A DNA stretch of 50,939 bases, taken from the NCBI GenBank assembly GCA_030615855.1, contig JAUWYL010000007.1, positions 1 through 50,939 on the forward strand. Reading direction: 5' to 3'. A program made the translations under genes and the position numbers. Shown piece after piece: positions 1-45,757 of this stretch (positions are counted from its first letter, which is position 1; each line of letters starts with the position of its first letter). The notes beneath the pieces were generated by a model that had not been told where the DNA came from, did no database searches, and was given only the letters and a program-made list of their open reading frames with translations. This DNA comes from a bacterium. GTDB lineage: Bacteria; UBP18; UBA7526.

Positions 1-159
1 AGATAAACCGGCTCTTAAAAGATTATTGCCTATGGAATATTTAAATTCTTTTGGTAGTTTTCTATACACCTCAAAGATTTTATCTATAAACTTTAGGGCA
101 AATTGGTAGACCTTTAGCCTTTCAAAATCAAACTGAAAATCGTCCTCTTTTTCTTTCAT
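1..159 (-). CDS. Four-helix-bundle protein (23S rRNA IVP / TIGR02436, bAvd-like fold), 5' part; runs off the window
   Basis: Not in the ORF track. Manual translation from ATG at 159 gives MKEKEDDFQFDFERLKVYQFALKFIDKIFEVYRKLPKEFKYSIGNNLLRAGLS, which fits the family pattern F-E-x-L-x-V-Y-Q...L-P-K-E-x-K-Y...R-A-x-x-S. Confidence 0.8.
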   Translation of the reverse strand, partial: MKEKEDDFQFDFERLKVYQFALKFIDKIFEVYRKLPKEFKYSIGNNLLRAGLS

Positions 160-170
160 AATCCTTTATC

Positions 171-207
171 TTAACTGGTTACTGTTCGCTGGTTACTGGT
201 TACTTCA
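171..207. repeat. Heptamer tandem repeat (ACTGGTT-type) directly upstream of the four-helix-bundle gene
   Basis: actggtt-actgttc-gctggtt-actggtt-acttca; the same unit recurs at about 40574-40597. Confidence 0.75.
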
Positions 208-747
208 CTACTCCATATAGACAAAGGTAGCCAGTTTAAGGCTGACGCTCAGGTTCCCCTTAGCATCAGAGGTGATGGTCATACTTTGAACATCGAGTAG
301 CCGCTCTGATTTTTCAATCTTATAAAGAAATTTAGCTAGGGAGGGGAGATCGCACTTCAGACTCAAGGATATGGGCTTGACCTTATAATATTCCTTTGGC
401 TGGAGAGCTCCCGGGCCGAAGGAGAGAATGGTTGCTCCAGAATCCCTTCCCATCCTGTAGACATCCTTTAGTAGCTTAGGTAGTCCTTCCTCCTTGGGCA
501 GCCTCCCCTTGGCAAATTTCAGCCTCGTCTGGGCCTCGAAGTAGTCCCTCTCCAACTTCTCCTCCATCCTGGCTGCTGCCTGGGCCTCCTTGAACTGGGC
601 CTCCTTCTTGGCCAGTTTCTCATTGGCCTCTTTCCACCTACTGGCCGGGGACCGAGGAGTTATATATAGAAAATAGTAGCCCGCTGCTAAGATAATAATT
701 ACTCCCATGAAGATGAGCAATTTCCTATCCCGGGGATTGAGCTTCAT
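208..747 (-). CDS. pilO: Type IV pilus assembly protein PilO
   Basis: N-terminal TM helix, coiled coil, LPKEEGLPKLL motif and C-terminal ferredoxin-like segment; follows pilM/N. Start moved to ATG 747, which has an AAGGAGG RBS. Confidence 0.8.
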   Translation of the reverse strand: MKLNPRDRKLLIFMGVIIILAAGYYFLYITPRSPASRWKEANEKLAKKEAQFKEAQAAARMEEKLERDYFEAQTRLKFAKGRLPKEEGLPKLLKDVYRMGRDSGATILSFGPGALQPKEYYKVKPISLSLKCDLPSLAKFLYKIEKSERLLDVQSMTITSDAKGNLSVSLKLATFVYME

Positions 748-5345: not shown

Positions 5346-5864
5346 TCAGTTATAGTTGGCCATGAGGGTAGTGAGATACACGCATCTCTGGCCGCTATGG
5401 CCACTCCCTGCCTTGTATGGCCACCAGACAGAGACCGTCACTTCCTTTGGATCGCTTCCCGAGGATATAGCCTGCCACTCGTATCTTGAGTAATAGCCAG
5501 GGGCAATGCTCTCGCTTGTCTCATTGGGAATGTTGGCATACCCTCCCCTCTTTATCTCCTCCATCCTCCTCTGGGCAAGGAGGGTGGCAGTGGTCAGGTC
5601 CTCCCCCAACTTGCTCGCCTTCAGTCCCATAGGCATAACACGCAAGAGGGCTAAGAGGGCTACGGCAAGAATGATAAGGGCGATCATGACCTCCAGAACC
5701 GTAAACCCCGCTTTCCTTGAATCGGGGAATCGGGGAATCGGGGTATCGGTAATTTTTCCCTTGTTTCCGCTTCTCCCATCTGCCCCGTAGGCTTGTCCTT
5801 CGGGGTTCCCCTTTTCTCCCTTTCCCTGATAACCTGATAACCTGATTACCTGATTACCGATCAC
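5346..5864 (-). CDS. GspI/PilV-like minor pilin with a long repeat-derived leader
   Basis: KAG|FTVLEVMIAL, ATLLAQRRMEEIK. GTG start preceded by GGTGA; the 53-aa leader is encoded largely by 8-mer repeats. Confidence 0.8.
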   Translation of the reverse strand: MIGNQVIRLSGYQGKGEKGNPEGQAYGADGRSGNKGKITDTPIPRFPDSRKAGFTVLEVMIALIILAVALLALLRVMPMGLKASKLGEDLTTATLLAQRRMEEIKRGGYANIPNETSESIAPGYYSRYEWQAISSGSDPKEVTVSVWWPYKAGSGHSGQRCVYLTTLMANYN

Positions 5865-5913
5865 TGTTTCACCTGCACGCTTTCTCCCCGTTTCTCTGTT
5901 TCATTACTTAAAC

Positions 5914-6564
5914 CTACCAGCTACTATATATTTTAACCCGAGCAGTAGCTTTGGCATTTTCTACCCGATACTTAACTTTCCCAGCTGTATCCTGCAGTTT
6001 TACGATTCCCTCATTGGCTGAGTCTGTAAGAGTGACTGTGCCTTTAAAGGTAAAGGTATGATGATAGGGGTCACTCGCTCCTCCTCCAATCACCTCATCT
6101 ATGACCACCACTTTGGGCAATTTTCTCTCGGAGCCCGGTTCTGGGTTCTTTGGAGGATAGGATAATGCGGGCTGAATCCAGACTACTTTATTGGTCTTAT
6201 CATAGACCGCATAGTACTCTTCTCTTAAAGTCATGGCCTTACTGTGGGCCATCCTCATGGTTGAGGCCACATCCCGGGCAGCATTCTTGACGCTCGTCCT
6301 GCGATAGGTCCCCTGGCCGTAGAAGAGTACCCCCCCAATGACAATGGCAATGATGACCACCACCACCATCATTTCTATAAGACTGAACCCGGCTTTCTTT
6401 GAATCGGAGAATCGGTGTGTTTCTGTATCGGTGTAACGGCGTATCGGTGTATCGGTGTAATTCTCTTTTATTACCTTACTCCGACACTCCCTCACTCCAT
6501 TACTCCGTTTCACCTGCCCACTTTCCCATTTTGCATTTTTAATTTTGCATTTTTCATTTTTCAT
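5914..6564 (-). CDS. GspH/FimT-like minor pilin with a long repeat-derived leader
   Basis: KAG|FSLIEMMVVV, AARDVASTMRMAHSKA. ATG overlaps the upstream stop (TGATG) with a GGAGG RBS. Paralog of 9658-10194. Confidence 0.8.
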   Translation of the reverse strand: MKNEKCKIKNAKWESGQVKRSNGVRECRSKVIKENYTDTPIRRYTDTETHRFSDSKKAGFSLIEMMVVVVIIAIVIGGVLFYGQGTYRRTSVKNAARDVASTMRMAHSKAMTLREEYYAVYDKTNKVVWIQPALSYPPKNPEPGSERKLPKVVVIDEVIGGGASDPYHHTFTFKGTVTLTDSANEGIVKLQDTAGKVKYRVENAKATARVKIYSSW

Positions 6565-7982
6565 CAGTCCTCCGGGATTTCCCTATAGTACCAGATTTTG
6601 CCTTTAACCGCCGGGGTAGCCTTTCCCCTGTTTATAATGATTCTGATCCTCTTCAAAGTCTCCTGACCGGATGGGGAAACATACCTCCCGGTTGATATTA
6701 TCTCAAAGAACTGGTTATTATGGGACTGGGGAGGGCCAGTAGGGCTATTGTTGAAGGAGAAGTTTGTGGTATAGGTCTTATCCGCAGCAAGTATCTCAAA
6801 GTCGGCATCATCGTCATTAACATCGGGTGTAGTGGGATTATTTGAGTCCCAGTTATCATACTCTGTCTCTGCATCCGGGTCAAAGTTATCCTTGATATTG
6901 TCCCTTACATAGTCGTTAGTGATGCTTTTTTCCGCAATCCGCACCGCCGTTGTATTCGGGTAGCCCCACTTGCGGACGTAATTAATAAATTCGTTAAACT
7001 CATCTTGGGCGCTACCCATCTCGTCCTGATTGGTCCGATCCAAAGTCCCATCATCCCAAGTATCAAGAAAGTAGTACTTCGCTGGGGAGCCACTTGAGGG
7101 AGGATTGAGGTCTATGTCCTGGATATTGAAAGGTTTTGAGGAATCGGTTTCGCTTCCGCTGTTGTCATCGTCCCGGTTGGTGTCTATGCCATCGAAGGGG
7201 TTATCGTCTGCTGTCCTTTCTATTCCATCGGCTCCAGCACGATAGGCAAGGATTGCTGTCACTACCCGGTCGATATTCGTCTCAGTTACTTTCAGTATGG
7301 CATAGCCAGGAGTTCCACTCTGATTCCTGCCAAAGGCAGCCTTCAGGGCCTTCTCATTTGCCGTATTGACATTTATAGGAAGACGGGTATCAGGGTTTGT
7401 AGGAAACTCTTTATGATAGACCTTTGCCACCTGATGATAGACTGAGAGGCTCTCCTCGCTTATATCATAGACGCAGGCTAATTCGTCAAGGGTCTCAAAG
7501 GGCCCATAAGTCTCTTTCTGATAGTTGACGATATTATTGACTTTTATAGTGCCTATATTTGGCAGCCCATCCAGAAGGTTCTTCCAGGAACTGTTGTCTG
7601 CTAAGGGATTATTGAGGCTCACCTTCCCTCCCTCATCATTTATTATGACGGCATAGTAGCCGAAGGTATTTCCATCCTCATCCGTCAAAGTAATCCACTT
7701 GGAATCCGCTGTTCCATCTCCATCGTTATCAACATCCGAACCACTGAAATAGGTGGCCCAATCCTCCTTTAGGGAATCAATGGTAAGATCTGTATCCCTC
7801 CTCAGCCAATAGACCGCATGGTCTATCCCGGCCTGGGTGATATACATAGCCTTCATATCGTCCCGATGGGTACGGGCGATGATGGGCTCCAAGCGCATCA
7901 TGAAGATGAAGGTGGTGCCGATGATGGCTAAGACGGCCAAGAGCCACATAGCCATAATCACGGCAACGCCCTTTTCTCCCAT
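6564..7982 (-). CDS. GspK/PilX-like minor pilin (second copy), Asp-rich
   Basis: MGEKG|VAVIM, AMYITQAGIDHAV, INVNTAN motif, DxDxDG-like loops (DVDNDGDG), FEIISTG...IWYYRE. ATG 7982 is coupled to the upstream stop. Confidence 0.75.
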   Translation of the reverse strand: MGEKGVAVIMAMWLLAVLAIIGTTFIFMMRLEPIIARTHRDDMKAMYITQAGIDHAVYWLRRDTDLTIDSLKEDWATYFSGSDVDNDGDGTADSKWITLTDEDGNTFGYYAVIINDEGGKVSLNNPLADNSSWKNLLDGLPNIGTIKVNNIVNYQKETYGPFETLDELACVYDISEESLSVYHQVAKVYHKEFPTNPDTRLPINVNTANEKALKAAFGRNQSGTPGYAILKVTETNIDRVVTAILAYRAGADGIERTADDNPFDGIDTNRDDDNSGSETDSSKPFNIQDIDLNPPSSGSPAKYYFLDTWDDGTLDRTNQDEMGSAQDEFNEFINYVRKWGYPNTTAVRIAEKSITNDYVRDNIKDNFDPDAETEYDNWDSNNPTTPDVNDDDADFEILAADKTYTTNFSFNNSPTGPPQSHNNQFFEIISTGRYVSPSGQETLKRIRIIINRGKATPAVKGKIWYYREIPED

Positions 7983-8728
7983 CAAAAGCCCCCAGTTAAA
8001 TCCTCTCCATAGCGGATGCCCGCCTTGACCATGGCGTGCAAGGTGGTCCCGGGATCGCTCTCATCTGTAGGATCGGCTTTGACCGTCAAAGTAATTTTTA
8101 GCATCCCGACACGGGATGCCGGTGGTCGATCATTAAAGTAGAGATAGGAAACAACACCTTCTGTACCGGGCATGGCGGCAGTTATTGGTTGGGAACCAGC
8201 ACTATGAAAACTATAACTTCCCTCACTTGTTTGGTAAGGAGGATTGAGCACTCTCTTATAAAGGGTATAGGTCTCGCTCCCCACCCCCGGCTCGCCAGAG
8301 TACCTGGAAAACTGAATCTTCTCCACTCCTTCTGTTCCATCTATAGGGACATAGAGGGTAATCCAGCGGCCCTCCCTCGCTGATCCTCCTTCCCCGAGTT
8401 CGAAGACAACATCTGGGGTATCTCCACCTACATCGGGTAGGGCCTGCCTGATCTCATTTACCATTCTCTCAAAGGCTATTCGGACATTCTGAATCAGTTC
8501 TACCCTCTCCTCTCCTGTCTTATAGGCCTTGGTTCCCATCTTAAAGACAGTATAGAAAGCAACCATTAACAGAGAGAGTAAGGCAACAGCGACCAGAAGC
8601 TCAACAAGGGTAATTCCCATTCTTTTTGAATCGGGGAATCGGAGAACCGGGGTATCGGGGTATCGGGGAATCGGGGTATCGGGGTTCCCTTTTTCTTCCT
8701 TTTCCTGATTACCTAATAACCTGATCAC
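7982..8728 (-). CDS. GspJ/PilW-like minor pilin with a repeat-derived leader
   Basis: KRMG|ITLVELLVAV, RIAFERMVNEIRQA; the leader contains DTPIPRYPDTPVLRFPDS. Confidence 0.78.
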   Translation of the reverse strand: MIRLLGNQEKEEKGNPDTPIPRYPDTPVLRFPDSKRMGITLVELLVAVALLSLLMVAFYTVFKMGTKAYKTGEERVELIQNVRIAFERMVNEIRQALPDVGGDTPDVVFELGEGGSAREGRWITLYVPIDGTEGVEKIQFSRYSGEPGVGSETYTLYKRVLNPPYQTSEGSYSFHSAGSQPITAAMPGTEGVVSYLYFNDRPPASRVGMLKITLTVKADPTDESDPGTTLHAMVKAGIRYGEDLTGGF

Positions 8729-8756
8729 TGGTCACTTTCCCACTTTCTATATTTTA

Positions 8757-9209
8757 TTACATCTTTTTCTCATAATCAGTAAAGAGGGTAACCAGTTTTA
8801 CGCTTCGCTCCCCACCATAGGGCTTATAGAAGACCTCAACCACAACTTTCTTAAGCTTGGGGTTGTTTACCGCATCCACATCACTAATTGTGGTCACCCG
8901 CTTGAACTGGAGATAATCAGTTATATCCCCATAATTCTCTGTGGTAGTGCCGCTGGATAGTTGGGCCCATCCCGTATTCCTTAATTCCTCTATCTTCGCC
9001 TGGGCCAGAAAGGAGGCCACCGTGGTATCTTGGGATATCTTACTTGCCCTGAGGCCAATAGGGAAGAGGTGCATGATGGCCAGTAGGCCAAAACCCAGGA
9101 CAATCACAGCAACCATGACCTCCAGAAGGGTGAATCCCGCTTGACGGGGAATCGGGGTATCGGGGAATCGGGGTATCGGGGTATCGGCGTAACAGAGTAT
9201 GGGGGTCAT
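8757..9209 (-). CDS. GspI/PilV-like minor pilin with a repeat-derived leader
   Basis: QAG|FTLLEVMVAV, ASFLAQAKIEELR. ATG 9209 overlaps the stop of the four-helix-bundle gene (ATGA). Confidence 0.78.
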   Translation of the reverse strand: MTPILCYADTPIPRFPDTPIPRQAGFTLLEVMVAVIVLGFGLLAIMHLFPIGLRASKISQDTTVASFLAQAKIEELRNTGWAQLSSGTTTENYGDITDYLQFKRVTTISDVDAVNNPKLKKVVVEVFYKPYGGERSVKLVTLFTDYEKKM

Positions 9210-9589
9210 TTGGAGATAGACCATTTGTCAGCAGTGTTAATCATTTTGACTAACTGACCAAGAATTTGTTCATATCGATTATCTAATTTCTGCCAGACGT
9301 CCTTTTTTATGTATTCCATGTGGAGTGCAAAGTCAAGCCAGCATTGTGTTTCGGCCGCCTCTCCTTCACTATCGCTGAGTTTGGAAATAAAGGCTGCTTT
9401 ATAGCGACGTTTTCTCCAGGCCTCCGCAATATTCGAACAGACAGAACGAGATGACCGACGCATCTGTTCACAAAGCGAATATCTCTCCTCTGGTGGAAAA
9501 GTTTTGCACAATTCGTGGATTTCCAATGCACATTCCATTGCCAACAGATATACCTCCAAATCCCTAAATGTCTCTGCATATCTACTCAT
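9206..9589 (-). CDS. Four-helix-bundle protein (23S rRNA IVP / TIGR02436 family)
   Basis: FRDLEVY, FPPEERYSLCEQMRRSSRSVCSNIAEAWRKRRY, KLSDSEGEAAETQCWLDFA. Confidence 0.9.
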   Translation of the reverse strand: MSRYAETFRDLEVYLLAMECALEIHELCKTFPPEERYSLCEQMRRSSRSVCSNIAEAWRKRRYKAAFISKLSDSEGEAAETQCWLDFALHMEYIKKDVWQKLDNRYEQILGQLVKMINTADKWSISK

Positions 9590-9590
9590 C

Positions 9591-9657
9591 CCTTACTCCC
9601 ATACTCCGTTACTCCCTTACTCCACCACTCTGTTTCTCCCATTCTCCGTTTCATCCC
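9591..9657. repeat. Octamer repeat arm (xxTACTCC) upstream of the four-helix-bundle gene
   Basis: ccttactcc-catactcc-gttactcc-cttactcc; 9598-9612 is the reverse complement of 9189-9203 at 14/15 positions. Confidence 0.85.
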
Positions 9658-10194
9658 TTAATCTTCCCAGCTATCATAGATTCTCGCCCGGGCAGTCGGG
9701 GATTTAAGCGTTACTTTATAGAAGTTCTTGAGCCCTTTGTCTTTTAACCAAACACTTCCCGCGGTAACCGTGCTTTTGGGTGAGAATTTATGATAAGCCG
9801 TCCCGGTGTCTGTATCCGCTGGAACGGGATCCGGAGTGCCAGGGTTCGATGCTTGGCCTCCCGTGCCTGCTTTGACCCGGGCGATGATTGCCATATCGGG
9901 AAGGGCTTGCTCCGTGCCAAAGTCCGGATTCTTCCCTGAAGTAATATAGATGGAATAGGATTGGACCCAGATGGTTTCATTATTACAGTCATAGACTGCA
10001 AGATAATTTTCTCTCTCTGTGACCGCCTTCTGCCGGGCGAGGCGCATGACGTTCACCACATCCCTGGCCGCCACCTTGACGCTCGTCGTCTCCCTGAAAT
10101 TCTTGAATATAGCAAAGGCCGCCAGGGCCATAAGAGCAATAATAAATATTACGGTCATTAGCTCTATAATAGAGAAGCCATTTCTTTTATTCAT
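9658..10194 (-). CDS. GspH/FimT-like minor pilin
   Basis: MNKRNG|FSIIELMTVI, AARDVVNVMRLARQKAV. Confidence 0.8.
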   Translation of the reverse strand: MNKRNGFSIIELMTVIFIIALMALAAFAIFKNFRETTSVKVAARDVVNVMRLARQKAVTERENYLAVYDCNNETIWVQSYSIYITSGKNPDFGTEQALPDMAIIARVKAGTGGQASNPGTPDPVPADTDTGTAYHKFSPKSTVTAGSVWLKDKGLKNFYKVTLKSPTARARIYDSWED

Positions 10195-10371
10195 TATAAT
10201 ACTTCACGGATGAGCACGGATTGACTAAACGGATTAGCACTGATTCAATCACCAACGGGGATGTTCTGATAATCTAGGAAATCGAGCTGCGCCCGTCTGG
10301 CCGTCGGACAGACAACCCTTCAACGTATAACGAAAAACGAAACTGGTTAACTGTTATGTATGATTGCCCCC

Positions 10372-10419
10372 CCACCACTTTTAAGCAAATCTAATTTTGG
10401 AAATCTTGAAAAGTGGTGG
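10372..10419 (-). terminator. Stem-loop downstream of the major pilin gene (terminator or stabiliser candidate)
   Basis: 11-bp inverted repeat ccaccactttt / aaaagtggtgg; no clear U-tract. Confidence 0.4.
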
Positions 10420-10450
10420 AGGGTTATATACTAAAGTGGGTCATCCACTC

Positions 10451-10930
10451 TTAGGGACTCTTGAACTCACCAGGGTTGACGTAGACTACAGAGTAGGTAG
10501 GCGCACCTTCATACTCTCCACCCCTGCACCAGATGGTGTATCTCGAAGGCCTGCCAGAGGTAACAGCTTGGTATCCGTAGGGGTTACCCCAGGGATCATC
10601 CGGCCAATTGCTGGTGTGTTTTCTGAACTTCATATAGGGGCCGGACCAGTTATCACCGATTGATTCAGCATCTGTTACCAGTGATTTTAGCCCGTAGCTG
10701 CCAGATGTTGACCCGGGCTTAGTGTCGCTACCACTCAAGGGATACTGGTCGCAGTCCAGGTAGTACATCTCGCAGGCAGTAGTCATGCTATCCAGGTCTG
10801 CCCAGCCACCGCCCTCCTTGGCCTTCCTCTGCTGCATCATGAACCTTGGTAGGGCAACGGCAGCTAAGATCCCGATGATGACTACTACCACCATCAACTC
10901 AATCAGCGTAAAACCCTTCTCTCTCTTCAT
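10451..10930 (-). CDS. gspG: GspG-like major (pseudo)pilin
   Basis: MKREKG|FTLIELMVVVVIIGILAAVALP, WSGPYM and DPWGNPY motifs; strong GAGGAGGTGA RBS before ATG 10930. Confidence 0.8.
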   Translation of the reverse strand: MKREKGFTLIELMVVVVIIGILAAVALPRFMMQQRKAKEGGGWADLDSMTTACEMYYLDCDQYPLSGSDTKPGSTSGSYGLKSLVTDAESIGDNWSGPYMKFRKHTSNWPDDPWGNPYGYQAVTSGRPSRYTIWCRGGEYEGAPTYSVVYVNPGEFKSP

Positions 10931-10950
10931 TCTTCTCACCTCCTCTCTAT

Positions 10951-11098
10951 ACACGGATTTCTTTGTTTTGCTTACTGTTTGGGATTAAACACACGGATAA
11001 TCACGGATAAAATCTTAGACACGGATTTTCACAGATTGGAAACGAATTAGCACGGATTTATCTGTGACCATCCGTAAAGAATCTGTGATTATCTGTGT
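10951..11098. repeat. CACGGAT/ATCCGTG-family hairpin element in the pilin 5' UTR
   Basis: Several cac(g/a)gat units followed by atc(t/c)gtg units; the left part resembles 42259-42320. Confidence 0.8.
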
Positions 11099-11100
11099 AT

Positions 11101-11130
11101 ATAATATCATAGTAAATTTCTATTTGTCAA
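11101..11130 (-). promoter_or_regulatory. Sigma70-type promoter for the major pilin
   Basis: TTGACA (11130-11125), 18-bp spacer ending in TGA, TATTAT (11106-11101). Confidence 0.65.
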
Positions 11131-11197
11131 GGATTTTCTAGTATTTGCTGATTCTTACTTTTTAATTTTACATTTTGCATTTTGCATTTTGCATTTT

Positions 11198-12133
11198 TCA
11201 ATGTTCCTCAAGGAGCCTCTCCATCTCCCTTACTACATCATAATCAGAATCTTTTGCTTCTGCATATCCTTCAAGTCCCGTTCCAGGATAGAGGGCCTCC
11301 AGGATCTCTCTTCCTTCTGGCGACTGGCCTAACTTTAAGAAGGCTTTAGATATCTTCTTCACTAACTTCTTATCCAAGTCAGGTCTTACGGCAAAGGGCT
11401 CATTCGATATGGGTGGAGTGCGGGCAATGACTTTCAATTCCTCTATCTTCTCCGGCTCTTCCCGGAAGGTGCTCTTCCGGGCATCATCGAAGCAGGCCCC
11501 GGCAGCAAAGTTTTTATGATAGACATTCAAGACCACCCCATCGTGGGTCCCGGTAAAGAATACTCTTTTAAAGTCCTTATCCGGGTCAATCCCTTTCTTT
11601 AGGAGAAGAACCTTAGGATAGAGGTAGCCAGAGGCCGACTCCCTATCCGTGAAGCAGAAACTCTTACCTCTCAAATCATTTAAGGTATTGATTCCAGAAT
11701 CCTTCCTCACAATGATTAAGGAACGGTAGGTAGCTGAGCCATGACGGATGGGCTTCAGGATGGCGTAATAGCCTGCTCGCTCATTCCCCTCAACATAAGA
11801 CTTGGGTCCCAGATGAACCAGATCATAGATCTTCTTCTCCATCCCTTTAATCATGGCCTCATAGTCCCTTGCGAACTGGAACCTCACCCTCATACCCAGT
11901 TCCTTCTCTAAGTATCTGATCAAGGGCTGTGACCTTTTCAGGAGTCTTACCACGTTCTCTGCGGGCACCCTTCCGATGACCAGGACCTCTTTCTCTTCTT
12001 TGGCCCTTGCCCTCTCTATCACTTGAGAAGGAAGAGGAGCCCTTATAAAATTGTAGTAGTAATAGCCCCCCAGGATTAGGGCCAGAAAAAGAACCAGGAT
12101 TATCGGAGTTATCCACTTTATTTTCTTAGCCAT
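11198..12133 (-). CDS. PhnD-family phosphate/phosphonate ABC substrate-binding protein, membrane anchored
   Basis: DYEAMIKGM, YRSLIIVRKDSGI, FTDRESASGYLYP, GTHDGVVLNV, DSDYDVVR; N-terminal TM helix. Start moved to 12133. Confidence 0.8.
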   Translation of the reverse strand: MAKKIKWITPIILVLFLALILGGYYYYNFIRAPLPSQVIERARAKEEKEVLVIGRVPAENVVRLLKRSQPLIRYLEKELGMRVRFQFARDYEAMIKGMEKKIYDLVHLGPKSYVEGNERAGYYAILKPIRHGSATYRSLIIVRKDSGINTLNDLRGKSFCFTDRESASGYLYPKVLLLKKGIDPDKDFKRVFFTGTHDGVVLNVYHKNFAAGACFDDARKSTFREEPEKIEELKVIARTPPISNEPFAVRPDLDKKLVKKISKAFLKLGQSPEGREILEALYPGTGLEGYAEAKDSDYDVVREMERLLEEH

Positions 12134-12149
12134 CATTACCCCCATAATT

Positions 12150-12390
12150 AAGTTGATACGTTGATAAGTCAACAAGTTAATACGAGAATACGAAAATAAG
12201 TGAATAAGTCATTGGGTCTCGGGTTACGGGTCTCGGGTTACGAGTTAAAACCCGTTTATTGTAATTTGTAACTCGCAACCCGTCACTCGCAACTCGTTAT
12301 TTCTTCTCCTCTGCCCCTTTTTCTTATCTACGTATTTTCTTATTTTCTTGTTTTCTTATTTTCCCTTGTTAACTTGTATTCTCGTCAACT
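12150..12390. repeat. Nested hairpin element: outer 8-mer arms (aacaagtt / aacttgt), inner 7-mer arms (gggttac / gtaactc)
   Basis: Read directly: gggtctc-gggttac-gggtctc-gggttac-gagtt ... aactcgc-aacccgt-cactcgc-aactcgt within A-rich and T-rich arms. Confidence 0.8.
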
Positions 12391-12399
12391 CCGTTGCCG

Positions 12400-13623
12400 T
12401 TAGCCCGACATGGCGCTCATCTGGAAGATGGGAAGGTACATGGCGATTACGATGAAGCCCACCACCAGTCCCATACCCAGTATTAGGATAGGCTCTAAGA
12501 CGCTGGTTAGGGCGGCCACCGTAGTATCTACCTCCCGGTCGTAGGCATCGGAGACCTTTATGAGCATGTTATCCAGGGCGCCCGTCTCCTCACCCACGGC
12601 GATCATATGGACTACCATGGGAGGGAAGACCGGGCTCTTCCCTAAAGGACCAGCAATGGACTCCCCTTCCCTTATGCTATTATGGACCGCCACCATGGCC
12701 CGGGCTATCACCTCATTCCCTGCGGTATCTCTTACAATTAAGAGGGCCTGTAAGATGGGGACCCCACTGGTAATCAGGGTTCCTAAGGTGCGGGCGAACC
12801 GGGAGAGGGCGCTCTTCTTCACCAGTTCTCCCAAGATGGGTATCCTGAGTTTGATCTTATCTGCCTGATACCTCCCCTCCTCCTTCCTCACCCACATTCT
12901 GTAGACAGCAATCAGGACCAGGATGGCCAAGAGGTTCACCCACCAGAAGCCCCTCAAGAAGTCGCTTATCACCATCATTATCTTCGTGGGAAGGGGAAGG
13001 GTAAGAGCAACCTCCTCAAACATGCCGACGAAGGTGGGGATGATGGCGATGGTCAAAAAGAGGACCACTCCTATTCCCACCATAATGACCAGGGCGGGAT
13101 AGACCATGGCCCCCTTCACCTTGGCCCTCACTGCTTGGTCCTTCTCGCTGAACTCCGCCAACCGGGCCAGGACGACCTCTAAGACCCCGCCTGCCTCACC
13201 AGCCTTTATCATGTTGACATAGAGTTTGTTAAATGTCCTGGGGTGCTTGGCTAAGGCATCGGAGAAGGTGCCTCCTCCCTGAACGCTGGCGGCGATATCC
13301 TTTATCTGGACCTTAAGATTGGGGTTCTCTGTCTGTTCGCCTAAAACAGTGAGGCTACGCAGCAGGGGAAGTCCAGAGTCGATGAGGGTGGAGAGCTGCC
13401 TGGTGAAGGTTACGATATCTTTTCCTTTTACTCTCTTGCCCGCAAACATTCCTAAGAAGGTATCTAATATTCCACCCTTGGCTGCCTTCTCCTCCCTGAC
13501 CTCCAGGGGAAGATAGCCCATATCCCTTAAACGTCCTAAGGCGAGCCTCTCATTATCCGCATCCAGGGTTCCTGCTACCTCTGTCCCTGCCTTATCCAGG
13601 GCCTTGTAAGCAAAAGTGGCCAT
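12400..13623 (-). CDS. pilC: Type IV pilus / T2SS inner-membrane platform protein PilC/GspF
   Basis: FTRQLSTLIDSGLPL, AGEAGGVLEVVLARLA, GEETGALDNML, EPILIL. Confidence 0.93.
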   Translation of the reverse strand: MATFAYKALDKAGTEVAGTLDADNERLALGRLRDMGYLPLEVREEKAAKGGILDTFLGMFAGKRVKGKDIVTFTRQLSTLIDSGLPLLRSLTVLGEQTENPNLKVQIKDIAASVQGGGTFSDALAKHPRTFNKLYVNMIKAGEAGGVLEVVLARLAEFSEKDQAVRAKVKGAMVYPALVIMVGIGVVLFLTIAIIPTFVGMFEEVALTLPLPTKIMMVISDFLRGFWWVNLLAILVLIAVYRMWVRKEEGRYQADKIKLRIPILGELVKKSALSRFARTLGTLITSGVPILQALLIVRDTAGNEVIARAMVAVHNSIREGESIAGPLGKSPVFPPMVVHMIAVGEETGALDNMLIKVSDAYDREVDTTVAALTSVLEPILILGMGLVVGFIVIAMYLPIFQMSAMSG

Positions 13624-13629
13624 TTCTCA

Positions 13630-13726
13630 CCTCACTCCGTTCGGTACACTGATTATTACAGATATTAACACTGATTAGCACTGATTATCCGTGCCCATCC
13701 GTTCTTACATCCGTGCTAATCCGTGC
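13630..13726. repeat. CACGGAT-family hairpin plus CCTCACTCCGTTCGG motif at the pilC start
   Basis: cactgatt units facing atccgtg units. Confidence 0.8.
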
Positions 13727-13727
13727 T

Positions 13728-15578
13728 TTAAGATTGTTCTGGCTTACTCTTCTCTTCGGCGGGCTTTGCGGTCTCTTCTGCGGCCTCTGCGGTTGCAGGC
13801 TTTTCTTCCTCGGGTGGCTTCTCCTCTGGGAGGGTTTCTTCCTCTGCAGTAGTTGCCCGGGCAAGTTCCTCTATGGTCATCTCTCCCGCTATTATCTTCC
13901 TCCAGCCATCCTCAAATAGGCTGCCCATCCCGGTCTCTCTGGCCTTGGCAGTTATTGCTGATGTCGAGGCCCGGGTCAGAATTAGTTCCCTCAGAGGATC
14001 ATTCATAATTAGTAACTCTGCGATGGCGCTACGACCATGATAGCCGGTATGGGCGCATTCCGGGCATCCCTTCCCTCTATAGAATTTGACCCCCTTAATA
14101 TCCTCTTCAGTCAATCCAATATCCCTCACTACCCTGGGATCCGGAGTATAGGGTTCCTTGCATTTCTTGCATATAGTCCTCACCAGTCTCTGGGCAAGGA
14201 TGGCCTCTAAGGTGGAGGTCATTAAGAAGGGCTCGATCCCCATATCGATTAGCCTGGTGATGGCTCCCGGGGCATCGTTGGTATGTAATGTGGAGAAGAC
14301 CAGGTGACCGGTGAGAGAGGCCTGAACCGCAAGCTGGGCGGTCTCCAAGTCCCTAATCTCACCCACCAGAATGACATCCGGGTCCTGACGAAGGATGTGC
14401 CTTAGACCCCGAGTAAAGGTGAGGCCTATCTTGGGGTTGATGGGCTCCTGGATGATCCCGTGGAGTTGATACTCCACCGGATCCTCTAAAGTTATGATCT
14501 TCAGATCCGGTCTATTTATCCTGGCCAAGGAGGCATAGAGGGTGGTGGTCTTCCCGCAGCCCGTGGGCCCGGTAACCAATATGATCCCGTTTGGACGATG
14601 AATGAGTTCCTTTAGCTGCTCCTCTATTCCTTTCGAGAAGCCGAGTTGCTCAAGTTCTACCATGATGGCTGATTTATCCAGGACCCTCATGACCACGCTC
14701 TCCCCGAAGATGGTGGGGAGACAGGAGACCCTCAGGTCGATCTCCCTCCCCCCCATGACGATCCTTATCCTCCCATCCTGGGGGAGCCTCCTCTCTGCGA
14801 TATTGAGATCGGCCATAATCTTAAACCTTGAGATAATCGCTGTCTGGAGGTGCTTGGGAGGGGGGGCGATCTCATGTAATACCCCATCCACCCGATACCT
14901 CACTTTGAGACTGTCCTCAAAGGGCTCGATGTGAATATCAGAGGCCCGATCCTTTATGGCCTGCATCAGGATGAGGTTGACCAGCTTTATGATGGGGGCC
15001 TCAGAGGCCATCCTCTTGAGGTCCGCGATATCCTCCTCTGCTGCCTCCTCCACCACTTCTGCCACCCCTCCGCTCATGGACTCTATCATCTGCTCCACCG
15101 TCTCCTCCCCTACCCCATAGTACTTCTCTATGGCCTTCATCACCTCATCCTCGGAAGCGATGACCGGCTTCACCTGACCATCGATAATGAGGCGCAGGTC
15201 ATCTAAGGCATGGACGTTCAGGGGATCAGCGAGGGCCACGGTCAAAACATCCCCCTTCCTCTCAATGGGGATTACCTTATAGAGGTGGGCGAAGGGGGGA
15301 GAGATGGTATCCAAGAGATCCTCATCTATCTTATGATCCTTAAGGCTTATCACCTCCATGCCGAACTGCTTTCCTAAGGCATCTAATATCTCTTCCTCTG
15401 TGGCATAGTTATTCTTAATCAATATCTTGCCCAGCCTCTCATGGGTGCTCTTCTGCTCCTGCAGGGCACGATTCAACTCCTCCTCTGTAATGACCCCGGC
15501 ATTCTTCAATATCTGACCTAAGGGCCGCTGCTGAAAGGCAGGGGCAGGAGGAATTCTCCTTGGTCTTCTCTCTGCCAT
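13728..15578 (-). CDS. pilB: PilB/GspE assembly ATPase (copy 2) with a MshEN-like N-terminus and acidic tail
   Basis: LGQILKNAGVIT, Walker A GPTGCGKTT, LRQDPDVILVGE, tetra-Cys Zn motif. Confidence 0.92.
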   Translation of the reverse strand: MAERRPRRIPPAPAFQQRPLGQILKNAGVITEEELNRALQEQKSTHERLGKILIKNNYATEEEILDALGKQFGMEVISLKDHKIDEDLLDTISPPFAHLYKVIPIERKGDVLTVALADPLNVHALDDLRLIIDGQVKPVIASEDEVMKAIEKYYGVGEETVEQMIESMSGGVAEVVEEAAEEDIADLKRMASEAPIIKLVNLILMQAIKDRASDIHIEPFEDSLKVRYRVDGVLHEIAPPPKHLQTAIISRFKIMADLNIAERRLPQDGRIRIVMGGREIDLRVSCLPTIFGESVVMRVLDKSAIMVELEQLGFSKGIEEQLKELIHRPNGIILVTGPTGCGKTTTLYASLARINRPDLKIITLEDPVEYQLHGIIQEPINPKIGLTFTRGLRHILRQDPDVILVGEIRDLETAQLAVQASLTGHLVFSTLHTNDAPGAITRLIDMGIEPFLMTSTLEAILAQRLVRTICKKCKEPYTPDPRVVRDIGLTEEDIKGVKFYRGKGCPECAHTGYHGRSAIAELLIMNDPLRELILTRASTSAITAKARETGMGSLFEDGWRKIIAGEMTIEELARATTAEEETLPEEKPPEEEKPATAEAAEETAKPAEEKSKPEQS

Positions 15579-20282: not shown

Positions 20283-20622
20283 AAATCCCAAATTCCAAGC
20301 ACCAAATTCCAAACAAATTTCAATTATCAGACACCAAGATACAAGAGACAATAACCCAAAAAGCATATCAGGATACCAATAGGAAGGGGATCAGGGCATC
20401 AGGATATCAGGTGGAAAATTCACCTGATCTGATAACCTGGTACTCTGATATTCTGCCTACTGATCTTCTGGTACTCTGATATTCTATCCACTGATTTACT
20501 TATTTTTGGTGATTTGGTCATTGTATATTGTTTGCCCTGCGAAATTCGGAGAATTTCCAGGATTAAGTCCCCGCAATCTTTTTAGATTGCAGGGGATGAT
20601 TTGTTATTTGTAATTTGGATAA
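20283..20622. repeat. Multiply nested hairpin repeat region
   Basis: Outer aaattcc / atttgg 7-mers, inner atcagg / ctgata 8-mers, plus short palindromes at 20537-20560 and 20568-20596. Confidence 0.75.
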
Positions 20623-43307: not shown

Positions 43308-43391
43308 CACAGATTAGCACAGATTAAAGGATACAGATTATCACAGATAAATCCGTGTGTATCAGTGTTGTTATCCGTGTCTATCCGTGTT
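43308..43391. repeat. CACAGAT/ATCCGTG-family hairpin element
   Basis: cacagatt units facing atccgtgt units; further copies at about 10205-10245, 26600-26670, 32355-32432, 42259-42350, 45695-45757 and 46955-47030. Confidence 0.85.
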
Positions 43392-45661: not shown

Positions 45662-45757
45662 TCCTATAAGCCTCCTCTCAAAACAATTCTGTAACCACGG
45701 ATTACACAGATTTTACGGATTATTTTTAAATCTGTCTAATCCGTCTAATCTGTGGTT

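Follow-up and report, generated by a model that had tools for sequence, protein, structure and literature searches.

A PF05635 gene between complementary repeat arrays in a prepilin leader: a probable mobile cassette read by translational relay

The window analysed here is a stretch of 50,939 nt that makes up contig C6 of genome G000 (1.375 Mb in 45 contigs, 93.6% complete). The locus of interest lies in a pseudopilin operon, and its genes and arms are all on the minus strand. The upstream flanking gene (9658..10194, 178 aa), taken from the ORF list and matched by the Pfam profile N_methyl at 1.2e-6, encodes a pseudopilin and ends in a TAA codon read at 9660-9658. Three bases after this stop begins an ATG (9654-9652) that is found in the same place in the related genomes G002 and G001, where it opens the pilin ORF and which we therefore call the ancestral pilin start. 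In the window it opens a mini-ORF of 22 codons (9586..9654) whose TGA (9588-9586) shares an ATGA (9589-9586) with the start codon of the next gene. This next gene, the cassette gene (9206..9589), encodes a 127-aa four-helix-bundle protein assigned to PF05635 (23S_rRNA_IVP) by Pfam and by sequence matches to PDB entries. Its stop codon (TGA, 9208-9206) overlaps in turn with the ATG (9209-9207) of an intact downstream pseudopilin gene (8757..9209; ORF list; N_methyl 8.3e-8), and the resulting second ATGA, read at 9206..9209, bears out the overlap that had been claimed from the sequence alone. The cassette gene thus has the same strand as the genes on both sides of it.

The downstream pilin has a leader of 25 aa (9209-9135) that ends in a glycine (9137-9135); the mature protein, as read from the sequence, begins at the phenylalanine (9134-9132) of the cleavage motif GFTLLE, which is cut between G and F (9137-9132). 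An alternative in-frame ATG lies at 9224-9222 (ORF 8757..9224). The cassette gene is flanked by two arms. The 5' arm (9595..9652), which is crossed by the mini-ORF, reads in the RNA as an array of 8-nt words of the GGAG type, rich in purines, and the 3' arm (9149..9206) is a pyrimidine-rich array, again of 8-nt words, whose in-frame translation makes up most of the pilin leader. Both were delimited by an inverted-repeat search and by TRF (which reports 9589-9647 on the 5' side), the 3' arm also by ORF translation. Both arms of the cassette therefore fall within translated frames, the 5' arm in the mini-ORF and the 3' arm in the pilin leader. Between the 3' arm and the cleavage motif the sequence read contains no further in-frame ATG, GTG or TTG, so that the usable pilin starts are those at 9209 and 9224 and the 3' arm sits between them and the cleavage motif. 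The entire cassette (5' arm, gene and 3' arm) measures about 510 nt. A profile search of the genome found the 5' part of a second PF05635 gene at window positions 1..123 on the minus strand, where it is ended by the contig start; a 7-nt array detected by TRF at 174-204 belongs to this gene. Contig C7 opens with the same gene piece and arm as window positions 1..123.

The cassette protein matches PF05635 with 108.3 bits (2.8e-31, against a cut-off of 33.8), residues 9-113 covering profile positions 1-104 of 106, and it matches by sequence the PDB entries 2rld (1.3e-10) and 2gsc (7.4e-9), which have five chains each. The family assignment and these matches to pentameric four-helix-bundle entries agree with the four-helix bundle proposed in the sequence-only reading. 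A match to bAvd (PF22296) is weak (25.9 bits, under the cut-off of 40), and we would guess, by analogy with the homologous DGR protein Avd, that the cassette protein may bind nucleic acid, possibly the arrays. To our knowledge, no function has been assigned to PF05635 since the 1990s; the family is familiar chiefly as the ORF carried by some rRNA intervening sequences (IVSs). The S23p protein of X. campestris is reported to be a homopentamer of four-helix bundles (PMC4990558).

The two arms are 58 nt each, 71% complementary and 388 nt apart, and both are tandem arrays with a period of 8 nt (TRF, 7.8 copies at 9145-9206 and 4.4 copies at 9589-9623), a feature that resembles the STRR-type repeats discussed below. 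The pairing at 14 of 15 positions on which the sequence-only reading was built proved to be the core of this longer inverted repeat (9149-9206 with 9595-9652, inverted-repeat search). Its two halves, at 9598-9612 in the 5' arm and 9189-9203 in the 3' arm, pair on the minus strand (9612-9598 with 9203-9189) through 14 Watson-Crick pairs and a single mismatch, which is indeed a G.U pair in the sense transcript; with its 15 bp this is also the longest uninterrupted helix in the arms. The distance of no more than 10 nt between arms and codons likewise held, with 8 nt from the inner 5' helix to the ATG (9589-9587) and 2 nt from the TGA (9208-9206) to the 3' helix. For the sense RNA of 9130-9670 the predicted fold (-168.9 kcal/mol, z -4.0, none of 100 shuffles as good) has the arms paired around the ORF, whereas the antisense RNA folds less well (-151.5, z -2.8).

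Repeat arrays are so abundant in this genome that the bracketing had to be compared with chance. TRF returned 1775 rows for G000, which merged into 1498 arrays covering 43,728 bp, mostly with periods of 7-10 nt; we know of no explanation for such short 7-10-nt tandem repeats in bacterial spacers. Inverted similarity exceeded the 99th percentile of random pairs in 129 of 3436 neighbouring array pairs. Gaps of less than 50 nt, which make them gene-less hairpins, are found in 71 of these 129, and six have gaps of 350-399 nt, five enclosing a PF05635 gene and one a PF13366 (GxxExxY-type) gene. Altogether there are 78 gene-less inverted pairs with gaps under 90 nt in G000, and elsewhere in the genome the two arms of a cassette occur together as hairpins without a gene. 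As a control, the complementarity of 5' and 3' flanks was scored for 1206 ordinary ORFs of G000: a score of at least 28 was reached by 9 of 12 small cassette genes and by 31 of the 1206 ordinary ORFs, and a score of at least 49, the value of the window copy, by four of the latter. Compared with 400 cross-locus arm pairs, the window copy (49) stands above the 99th percentile (32). The arm pairing at the window locus is beyond chance. One ordinary gene that is bracketed lies at C23:18162-19370, with a score of 72.

G000 has 10 matches to PF05635, of which eight are above the cut-off. Complementary flanking arrays are present at all seven copies for which both flanks are available, each with a different word of 7-8 nt or longer, and the six of these proteins that were aligned with the protein of the window copy are only 25-44% identical to it. 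TRF gives periods of 7-8 nt at 7 of 10 PF05635 gene ends and a period of 10 nt at 3 of 6 PF13366 genes, which is a tendency and not a rule. The PF13366 genes form a second small family, bracketed mostly by 10-nt words.

PF05635 matches were found in 58 of 151 genomes, from which a diverse set of 29 loci, one per genome, was taken together with the seven copies of G000. In this set 21 of 36 loci score above the 99th percentile of cross-locus arm pairs (32) and 15 are not significant; the bracket is seen in 17 of the 29 loci from other, mostly unrelated genomes. The bracket is thus common, but not universal, among PF05635 loci. Homologous genes elsewhere, whose lack of flanking arms the sequence-only reading had named as counting against its proposal, do carry inverted arms: at 25 of 42 loci (the 36 diverse ones and six of PF13366) no other 3' flank pairs as well with the 5' flank as the cognate one, with about one such locus expected by chance. 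The arms are a property of the gene and not of the place where it is found. We also fetched 80 metagenome loci of the subfamily, 68 of them with both flanks, representing 67 distinct relatives with identities of 54-63%. Their arms are mostly built of words of GGAG plus 4 nt (100 GGAG against 7 CTCC in the 5' arms) and pair across loci, which raises the 99th percentile of the null distribution to 54, compared with 32 in the diverse set. The word family is thus passed on along with the protein subfamily. Cassettes and gene-less hairpins have the same purine-first handedness, but the purine bias of the 5' arm was dropped as a strand signal because an element that runs from 5' purine to 3' pyrimidine reads alike on both strands. 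By crude ORF calls, both neighbours are co-oriented with the PF05635 gene at 24 of 32 diverse and 26 of 52 subfamily loci, which is not clearly above the usual rate for adjacent bacterial genes.

The surroundings of the locus are conserved in related genomes, all of them, like G000, MAG assemblies in which repeats can be misassembled. Orthologues of the upstream pseudopilin are 96% identical in G002, 68% in G001 and 61% in G003, and for the protein encoded at 12400-13623, which we take to be GspF-like, the identity is 97% with G002 and 87% with G003. The downstream pilin is 78% identical to its G002 orthologue over 142 aa; the G003 orthologue gives a weak match to T2SSI (8.6e-5, under the cut-off). 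At the window junction, both G002 and G001 lack the gene and carry in its place a short hairpin, made of words from the same family and with a loop common to the two genomes. Since the two hairpins share this loop, the gene-less state is most simply taken as the original one of the genus, which would make the window copy a gain; at this exact site the gain is judged from three genomes, with independent losses as the alternative. The window copy accordingly lies in what the sister genomes have as a leader-peptide-coding hairpin of the pseudopilin gene. In G003 the junction is occupied by a decayed GIY-YIG-like mini-gene with an in-frame stop, matched by tblastn with the GIY-YIG proteins of G000 (5e-7 and 2e-6, in a 501-nt database), while a Pfam search of the G003 junction fragments gave no GIY-YIG match. 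What is left of the C-terminal part of this mini-gene contributes to the pilin leader.

Five sites, namely the window site and four further G002 cassette loci, were compared between G000 and G002. Presence of the cassette differs at three of them, at one the cassette has been replaced and at one it is shared. On contig C69 of G002 (G002:C69), a 490-nt cassette encoding a protein 61% identical to that of the window is found between the corresponding genes of a paralogous pseudopilin operon; its counterpart in G000 (G000:C44, near 31456) is a clean site with no arrays and a canonical 6-aa leader, MWKKKG, before the cleavage motif. The G002:C69 insert has AAGA on both sides, which is a repeat of only 4 nt within a purine-rich stretch. 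Its cassette gene lacks a stop codon and is fused in frame through the 3' arm to the downstream pilin, giving an ORF of 255 aa. The site on G002:C86 is occupied, and G000 has there (C10, 7225-7262) a gene-less hairpin with arms similar to those of its cassette on C30. At the site on G002:C42 and G000:C35 each genome has a cassette, but the two cannot be aligned and differ in their arm words, within flanks that are 88-92% identical, whereas the cassettes of G002:C30 and G000:C30 are shared (96%). A 5'-truncated copy is present at another locus in G003 (C6), after a TPR gene; a stretch of 218 nt is 89% identical, and 37 nt of its 5' arm are 95% identical. The same junction holds a pseudopilin directly in G001 and a GIY-YIG element in G000 and G002. 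This copy, which also has the 'outer' 5' words at its different locus, weakens a view of the arms as nested, with an inner pair belonging to the cassette and an outer pair resident at the site. As far as assembled sequences can be relied on, the aligned sites show a cassette that appears to be gained, lost and replaced as a unit between sister genomes.

The interpretation that we favour, and hold to be probable, is that the window element is a self-contained mobile PF05635 cassette bracketed by a stem, which sits in a cleavable prepilin leader and is expressed by a translational relay. The cassette would have no promoter of its own and would be carried on the transcript of the pilin operon. 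Ribosomes would begin at the old pilin ATG, read the 22-codon mini-ORF through the 5' arm, stop and restart at the first ATGA on the cassette gene, and do so again at the second ATGA on the pilin. The new 25-aa pilin leader would be the translated 3' arm, which the prepilin peptidase would take off. The two ATGA overlaps (9589-9586 and 9209-9206), the in-frame leader and the intact downstream pilin are the basis for this relay. The cassette encodes only the PF05635 protein, with no transposase in cis, profile searches of G000 matched neither RVT_1 nor Y1_Tnp, and its movement may take place without a dedicated transposase, by homologous or microhomology recombination through shared repeat words. 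We propose this route because words of the arms recur in resident hairpins and in purine-rich leader codons: the 5' arm of the window copy opens with words that serve as pilin leader codons in the sister genomes, and the clean site at G000:C44 is purine-rich at the junction. The recombination mechanism is thus one that we infer from the shared words. Alternatively, some transposase could have left the AAGA at G002:C69 as a target-site duplication. Complementarity of the arms could be maintained by hairpin template switching.

The sequence-only reading had gone further and proposed that the transcript is processed in the manner of an IVS, the arms pairing in the operon mRNA, RNase III cutting the stem and the gene being freed as a stem-capped mini-mRNA. 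The anatomy fits, in that a PF05635 gene on the strand of its flanks is closed by a long imperfect stem; the protein belongs to the same family as the IVS ORFs of Coxiella, Leptospira and Xanthomonas, G000 encodes an RNase III, the sense RNA is predicted to fold into the closed form and to be more stable than the antisense RNA, and the mismatch of the inner helix is a G.U pair in the sense strand. Covariation of inverted DNA repeats by itself, however, is no proof of RNA structure, as hairpin template switching can keep the arms complementary. A search for RNA runs found none for positions 8700-10200 of the window, and three RNA runs from the same sample or study gave no contigs over 5500-15500. 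Mismatches in the arms of the window copy comprise 3 G.U against 6 A.C, and the pooled counts are 66 against 44 in the 21 significant diverse loci (10 loci with an excess of G.U, seven with an excess of A.C) and 33 against 32 in 10 significant subfamily loci, and these counts do not clearly point to selection acting on the sense transcript. In ORF-bearing 23S rRNA IVSs, RNase III cuts in the middle of a 28-bp stem (PMC4990558), while here the longest unbroken helix has 15 bp and the rest of the arms shows 71% complementarity. As both arms are translated, ribosomes would melt the stem. Since the 3' arm lies between the pilin start and the cleavage motif, a cut in it would sever the start codon from the body of the pilin, which contradicts the claim of the same reading that the insert need not be polar, and the pilin fused to its cassette gene at G002:C69 could be made only from uncut RNA. 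The IVS-like interpretation is therefore partly supported, with the anatomy in its favour and processing that would be costly at the window locus; we consider such processing unlikely.

Less likely still is that the PF05635 protein acts in trans, binding the array words as hairpin DNA or RNA and promoting their extrusion, copying or recombination, so that the cassettes would be 'autonomous' and the gene-less hairpins their MITE-like derivatives. It would be in keeping with this that the family of arm words follows the protein subfamily among the 67 metagenome relatives, that gene-less hairpins have both arms of a cassette and the same purine-first handedness, that the PF13366 family is bracketed as well, mostly by 10-nt words, and that profile searches of the 93.6% complete G000 gave no match to RVT_1 or to Y1_Tnp. 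Common descent by itself, however, explains why words track the protein, no catalytic motif is known in the family, and some 1498 arrays stand against only about eight such genes in G000. The absence of Y1 transposase matches from G000 also led us to reject a REP/RAYT-type system. A by-product view, in which hairpin arrays occupy nearly every spacer and any small spacer gene looks bracketed, could draw on the 1498 merged arrays, the 78 gene-less inverted pairs and bracketed ordinary genes such as the one on C23, but it is largely refuted and in our opinion very improbable, given the enrichment among cassette genes over ordinary ORFs (9/12 against 31/1206), the recurrence of the bracket in 17 of 29 mostly unrelated genomes, the arrival of both arms with the G002:C69 cassette at a site free of arrays in G000, and the joint exchange of gene and arms at the C42/C35 site. 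Finally, the cassette gene might be a DGR accessory (Avd) gene or the remnant of a retroelement. The weak bAvd match points that way, and PF05635 is reported to be common beside DGR reverse transcriptases (PMC10053308); with no RVT_1 match in the 93.6% complete G000 and no template/variable repeat pair seen near the gene in the repeat search, this origin is hardly credible.

With the mobile cassette as the preferred reading, its relation to known systems can be described as follows. STRR-type repeats of cyanobacteria have 7-nt units, and similar intergenic repeats of 5-11 nt exist; their word families are numerous, and the arrays often form mirror-image hairpins. The arrays described here are likewise intergenic tandem repeats of 7-10-nt units that are often mirrored as hairpins, but they differ in having a specific gene family in the loop and in that complementary pairs of arrays move with the gene; the literature searched yielded no description that links STRR-type arrays with a looped gene family. 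MITE and REP-RAYT systems consist of an autonomous element and its gene-less hairpin derivatives. The cassettes share with them the small size, the bounding inverted repeats, the gene-less copies with the same arms and the presence or absence between close relatives, but no nuclease or transposase fold is known for their protein, Y1 transposases were not found and the arms vary from copy to copy. From DGR Avd (bAvd, PF22296), with which the protein shares a homologous four-helix-bundle fold family (PMC10053308), the system differs in having no reverse transcriptase and no TR/VR pair and in a bAvd score under the cut-off.

The closest parallel is the ORF-bearing 23S rRNA IVS, as it is presented in PMC4990558 for Coxiella burnetii S23p and for Leptospira, Xanthomonas and Brucella. 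Both elements encode a protein of one family (PF05635/S23p) and are of comparable length (428 nt for the IVS, about 510 nt for the cassette); in both, the ORF runs in the sense direction of the host transcript, complementary termini form a stem that closes it, and the distribution is sporadic, which suggests horizontal transfer. The host, in contrast, is a protein-coding pseudopilin operon and not helix 9, 25 or 45 of the rRNA (23S rRNA was not found in the G000 assembly); the arms consist of 8-nt words repeated in tandem instead of the simple 28-bp inverted repeat of that source, and both are translated; and excision without ligation, harmless in rRNA, would be harmful here. The full texts searched, from outside subscription journals, contained no description of PF05635 genes flanked by repeat arrays at sites other than rRNA.

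The locus thus links two puzzles, the function of PF05635 and the short tandem repeats of bacterial spacers, and makes both testable. The sister genomes provide clean before and after states in which gene and arms move together, may land at a site without arrays and can be replaced at one and the same site. The proposed relay would also indicate how an insert can be harmless inside an operon, through its seat in a cleavable prepilin leader and through stop/start overlaps on both sides that would keep translation coupled. More speculatively, PF05635 proteins, and in parallel those of PF13366 (GxxExxY), may be partners of mobile hairpin elements without a transposase, of which gene plus arms would be the autonomous form and the thousands of gene-less, STRR-like hairpins of 7-10-nt arrays the derivatives. 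The rRNA IVS would then be one landing site among others, and the insertion into a prepilin leader with its ATGA relays would illustrate how such elements can invade an operon without polarity.

The complementary arms that bracket the small PF05635 (four-helix-bundle) genes share a handedness with the inverted pairs of short-word tandem arrays that carry no gene between them. Across the source genome, 69 of the 78 such gene-less hairpins have a purine-rich 5' arm and eight a pyrimidine-rich one, as exemplified in the window at positions 5719-5858, 6424-6506, 12214-12297 and 20385-20485. The 5' arms of the cassettes are likewise purine-first, by 19 to 3 and 39 to 3 in two sets scored by a G>C criterion. 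This polarity is the same on either strand and is therefore a property intrinsic to the hairpin.

The assembly is broken at a second PF05635 cassette (window 1-230; C7, 1-230; C26, 32587-32940). The same gene is interrupted at the start of both C6, the window's contig, and C7; the gene piece and its 32-nt 5' arm of 7-nt words are identical in the two contigs, whereas the upstream neighbours and a short segment around the start codon differ, and the remainder of such a gene forms the end of C26. Thus, judging from the assembled sequence, this cassette is present as at least two near-identical copies at separate loci of the genome.

Six small PF13366 (PDDEXK_3, GxxExxY-type) genes of the source genome are bracketed in the same way (C45, 36814-37200 and 3261-3632; C30, 3069-3452, 58337-58699 and 23924-24319; C41, 18351-18713), the words being in most cases 10 nt long and of CACGGAT/ATCCGTG type; identical 10-nt words occur without a gene in the window, for example at 10992-11010, 13664-13728, 43308-43390 and 45696-45750. 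A few full-size ordinary genes also lie between strongly complementary arrays, with flank scores (complementarity of the 5' to the 3' flank; genome median 16) of 72 for C23, 18162-19370, whose sequence suggests a candidate acetate kinase, 54 for C3, 12513-13046, and 53 for both C30, 6056-6847, and C18, 22830-24071. Two small GIY-YIG genes (C35, 39292-39489; C30, 56620-56802) have, in place of tandem arrays, a fixed inverted repeat (ACCCCGC.../...GCGGGGT type) on their flanks. The C30 copy lies where a TPR gene ends (3' end), and the orthologous TPR-gene end is followed by a truncated PF05635 cassette in the related genome G003 and directly by a pseudopilin gene in G001.

Three more pseudopilin genes in the operon that holds the bracketed PF05635 gene (window 5700-5915, 6400-6564 and 8620-8760, minus strand) have long leader peptides with in-frame translated repeat arrays or hairpins, and a leader-like ATG at 5893 opens a short ORF ended by a stop, like the mini-ORF at the PF05635 gene. 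At the orthologous junction in G003 (L014, 1675-2030; from C27), the pseudopilin leader is now read from the C-terminal remnant of a frameshifted, stop-containing GIY-YIG-like mini-gene. In the sister genome G002 (L063, 1108-1875, minus strand; from C69), a PF05635 gene lacks a stop codon and continues in frame through its 3' repeat arm into the pseudopilin that follows, making a fusion ORF of 255 aa. As this sequence reads, prepilin peptidase would cut off the four-helix bundle in the manner of a giant 'leader'.
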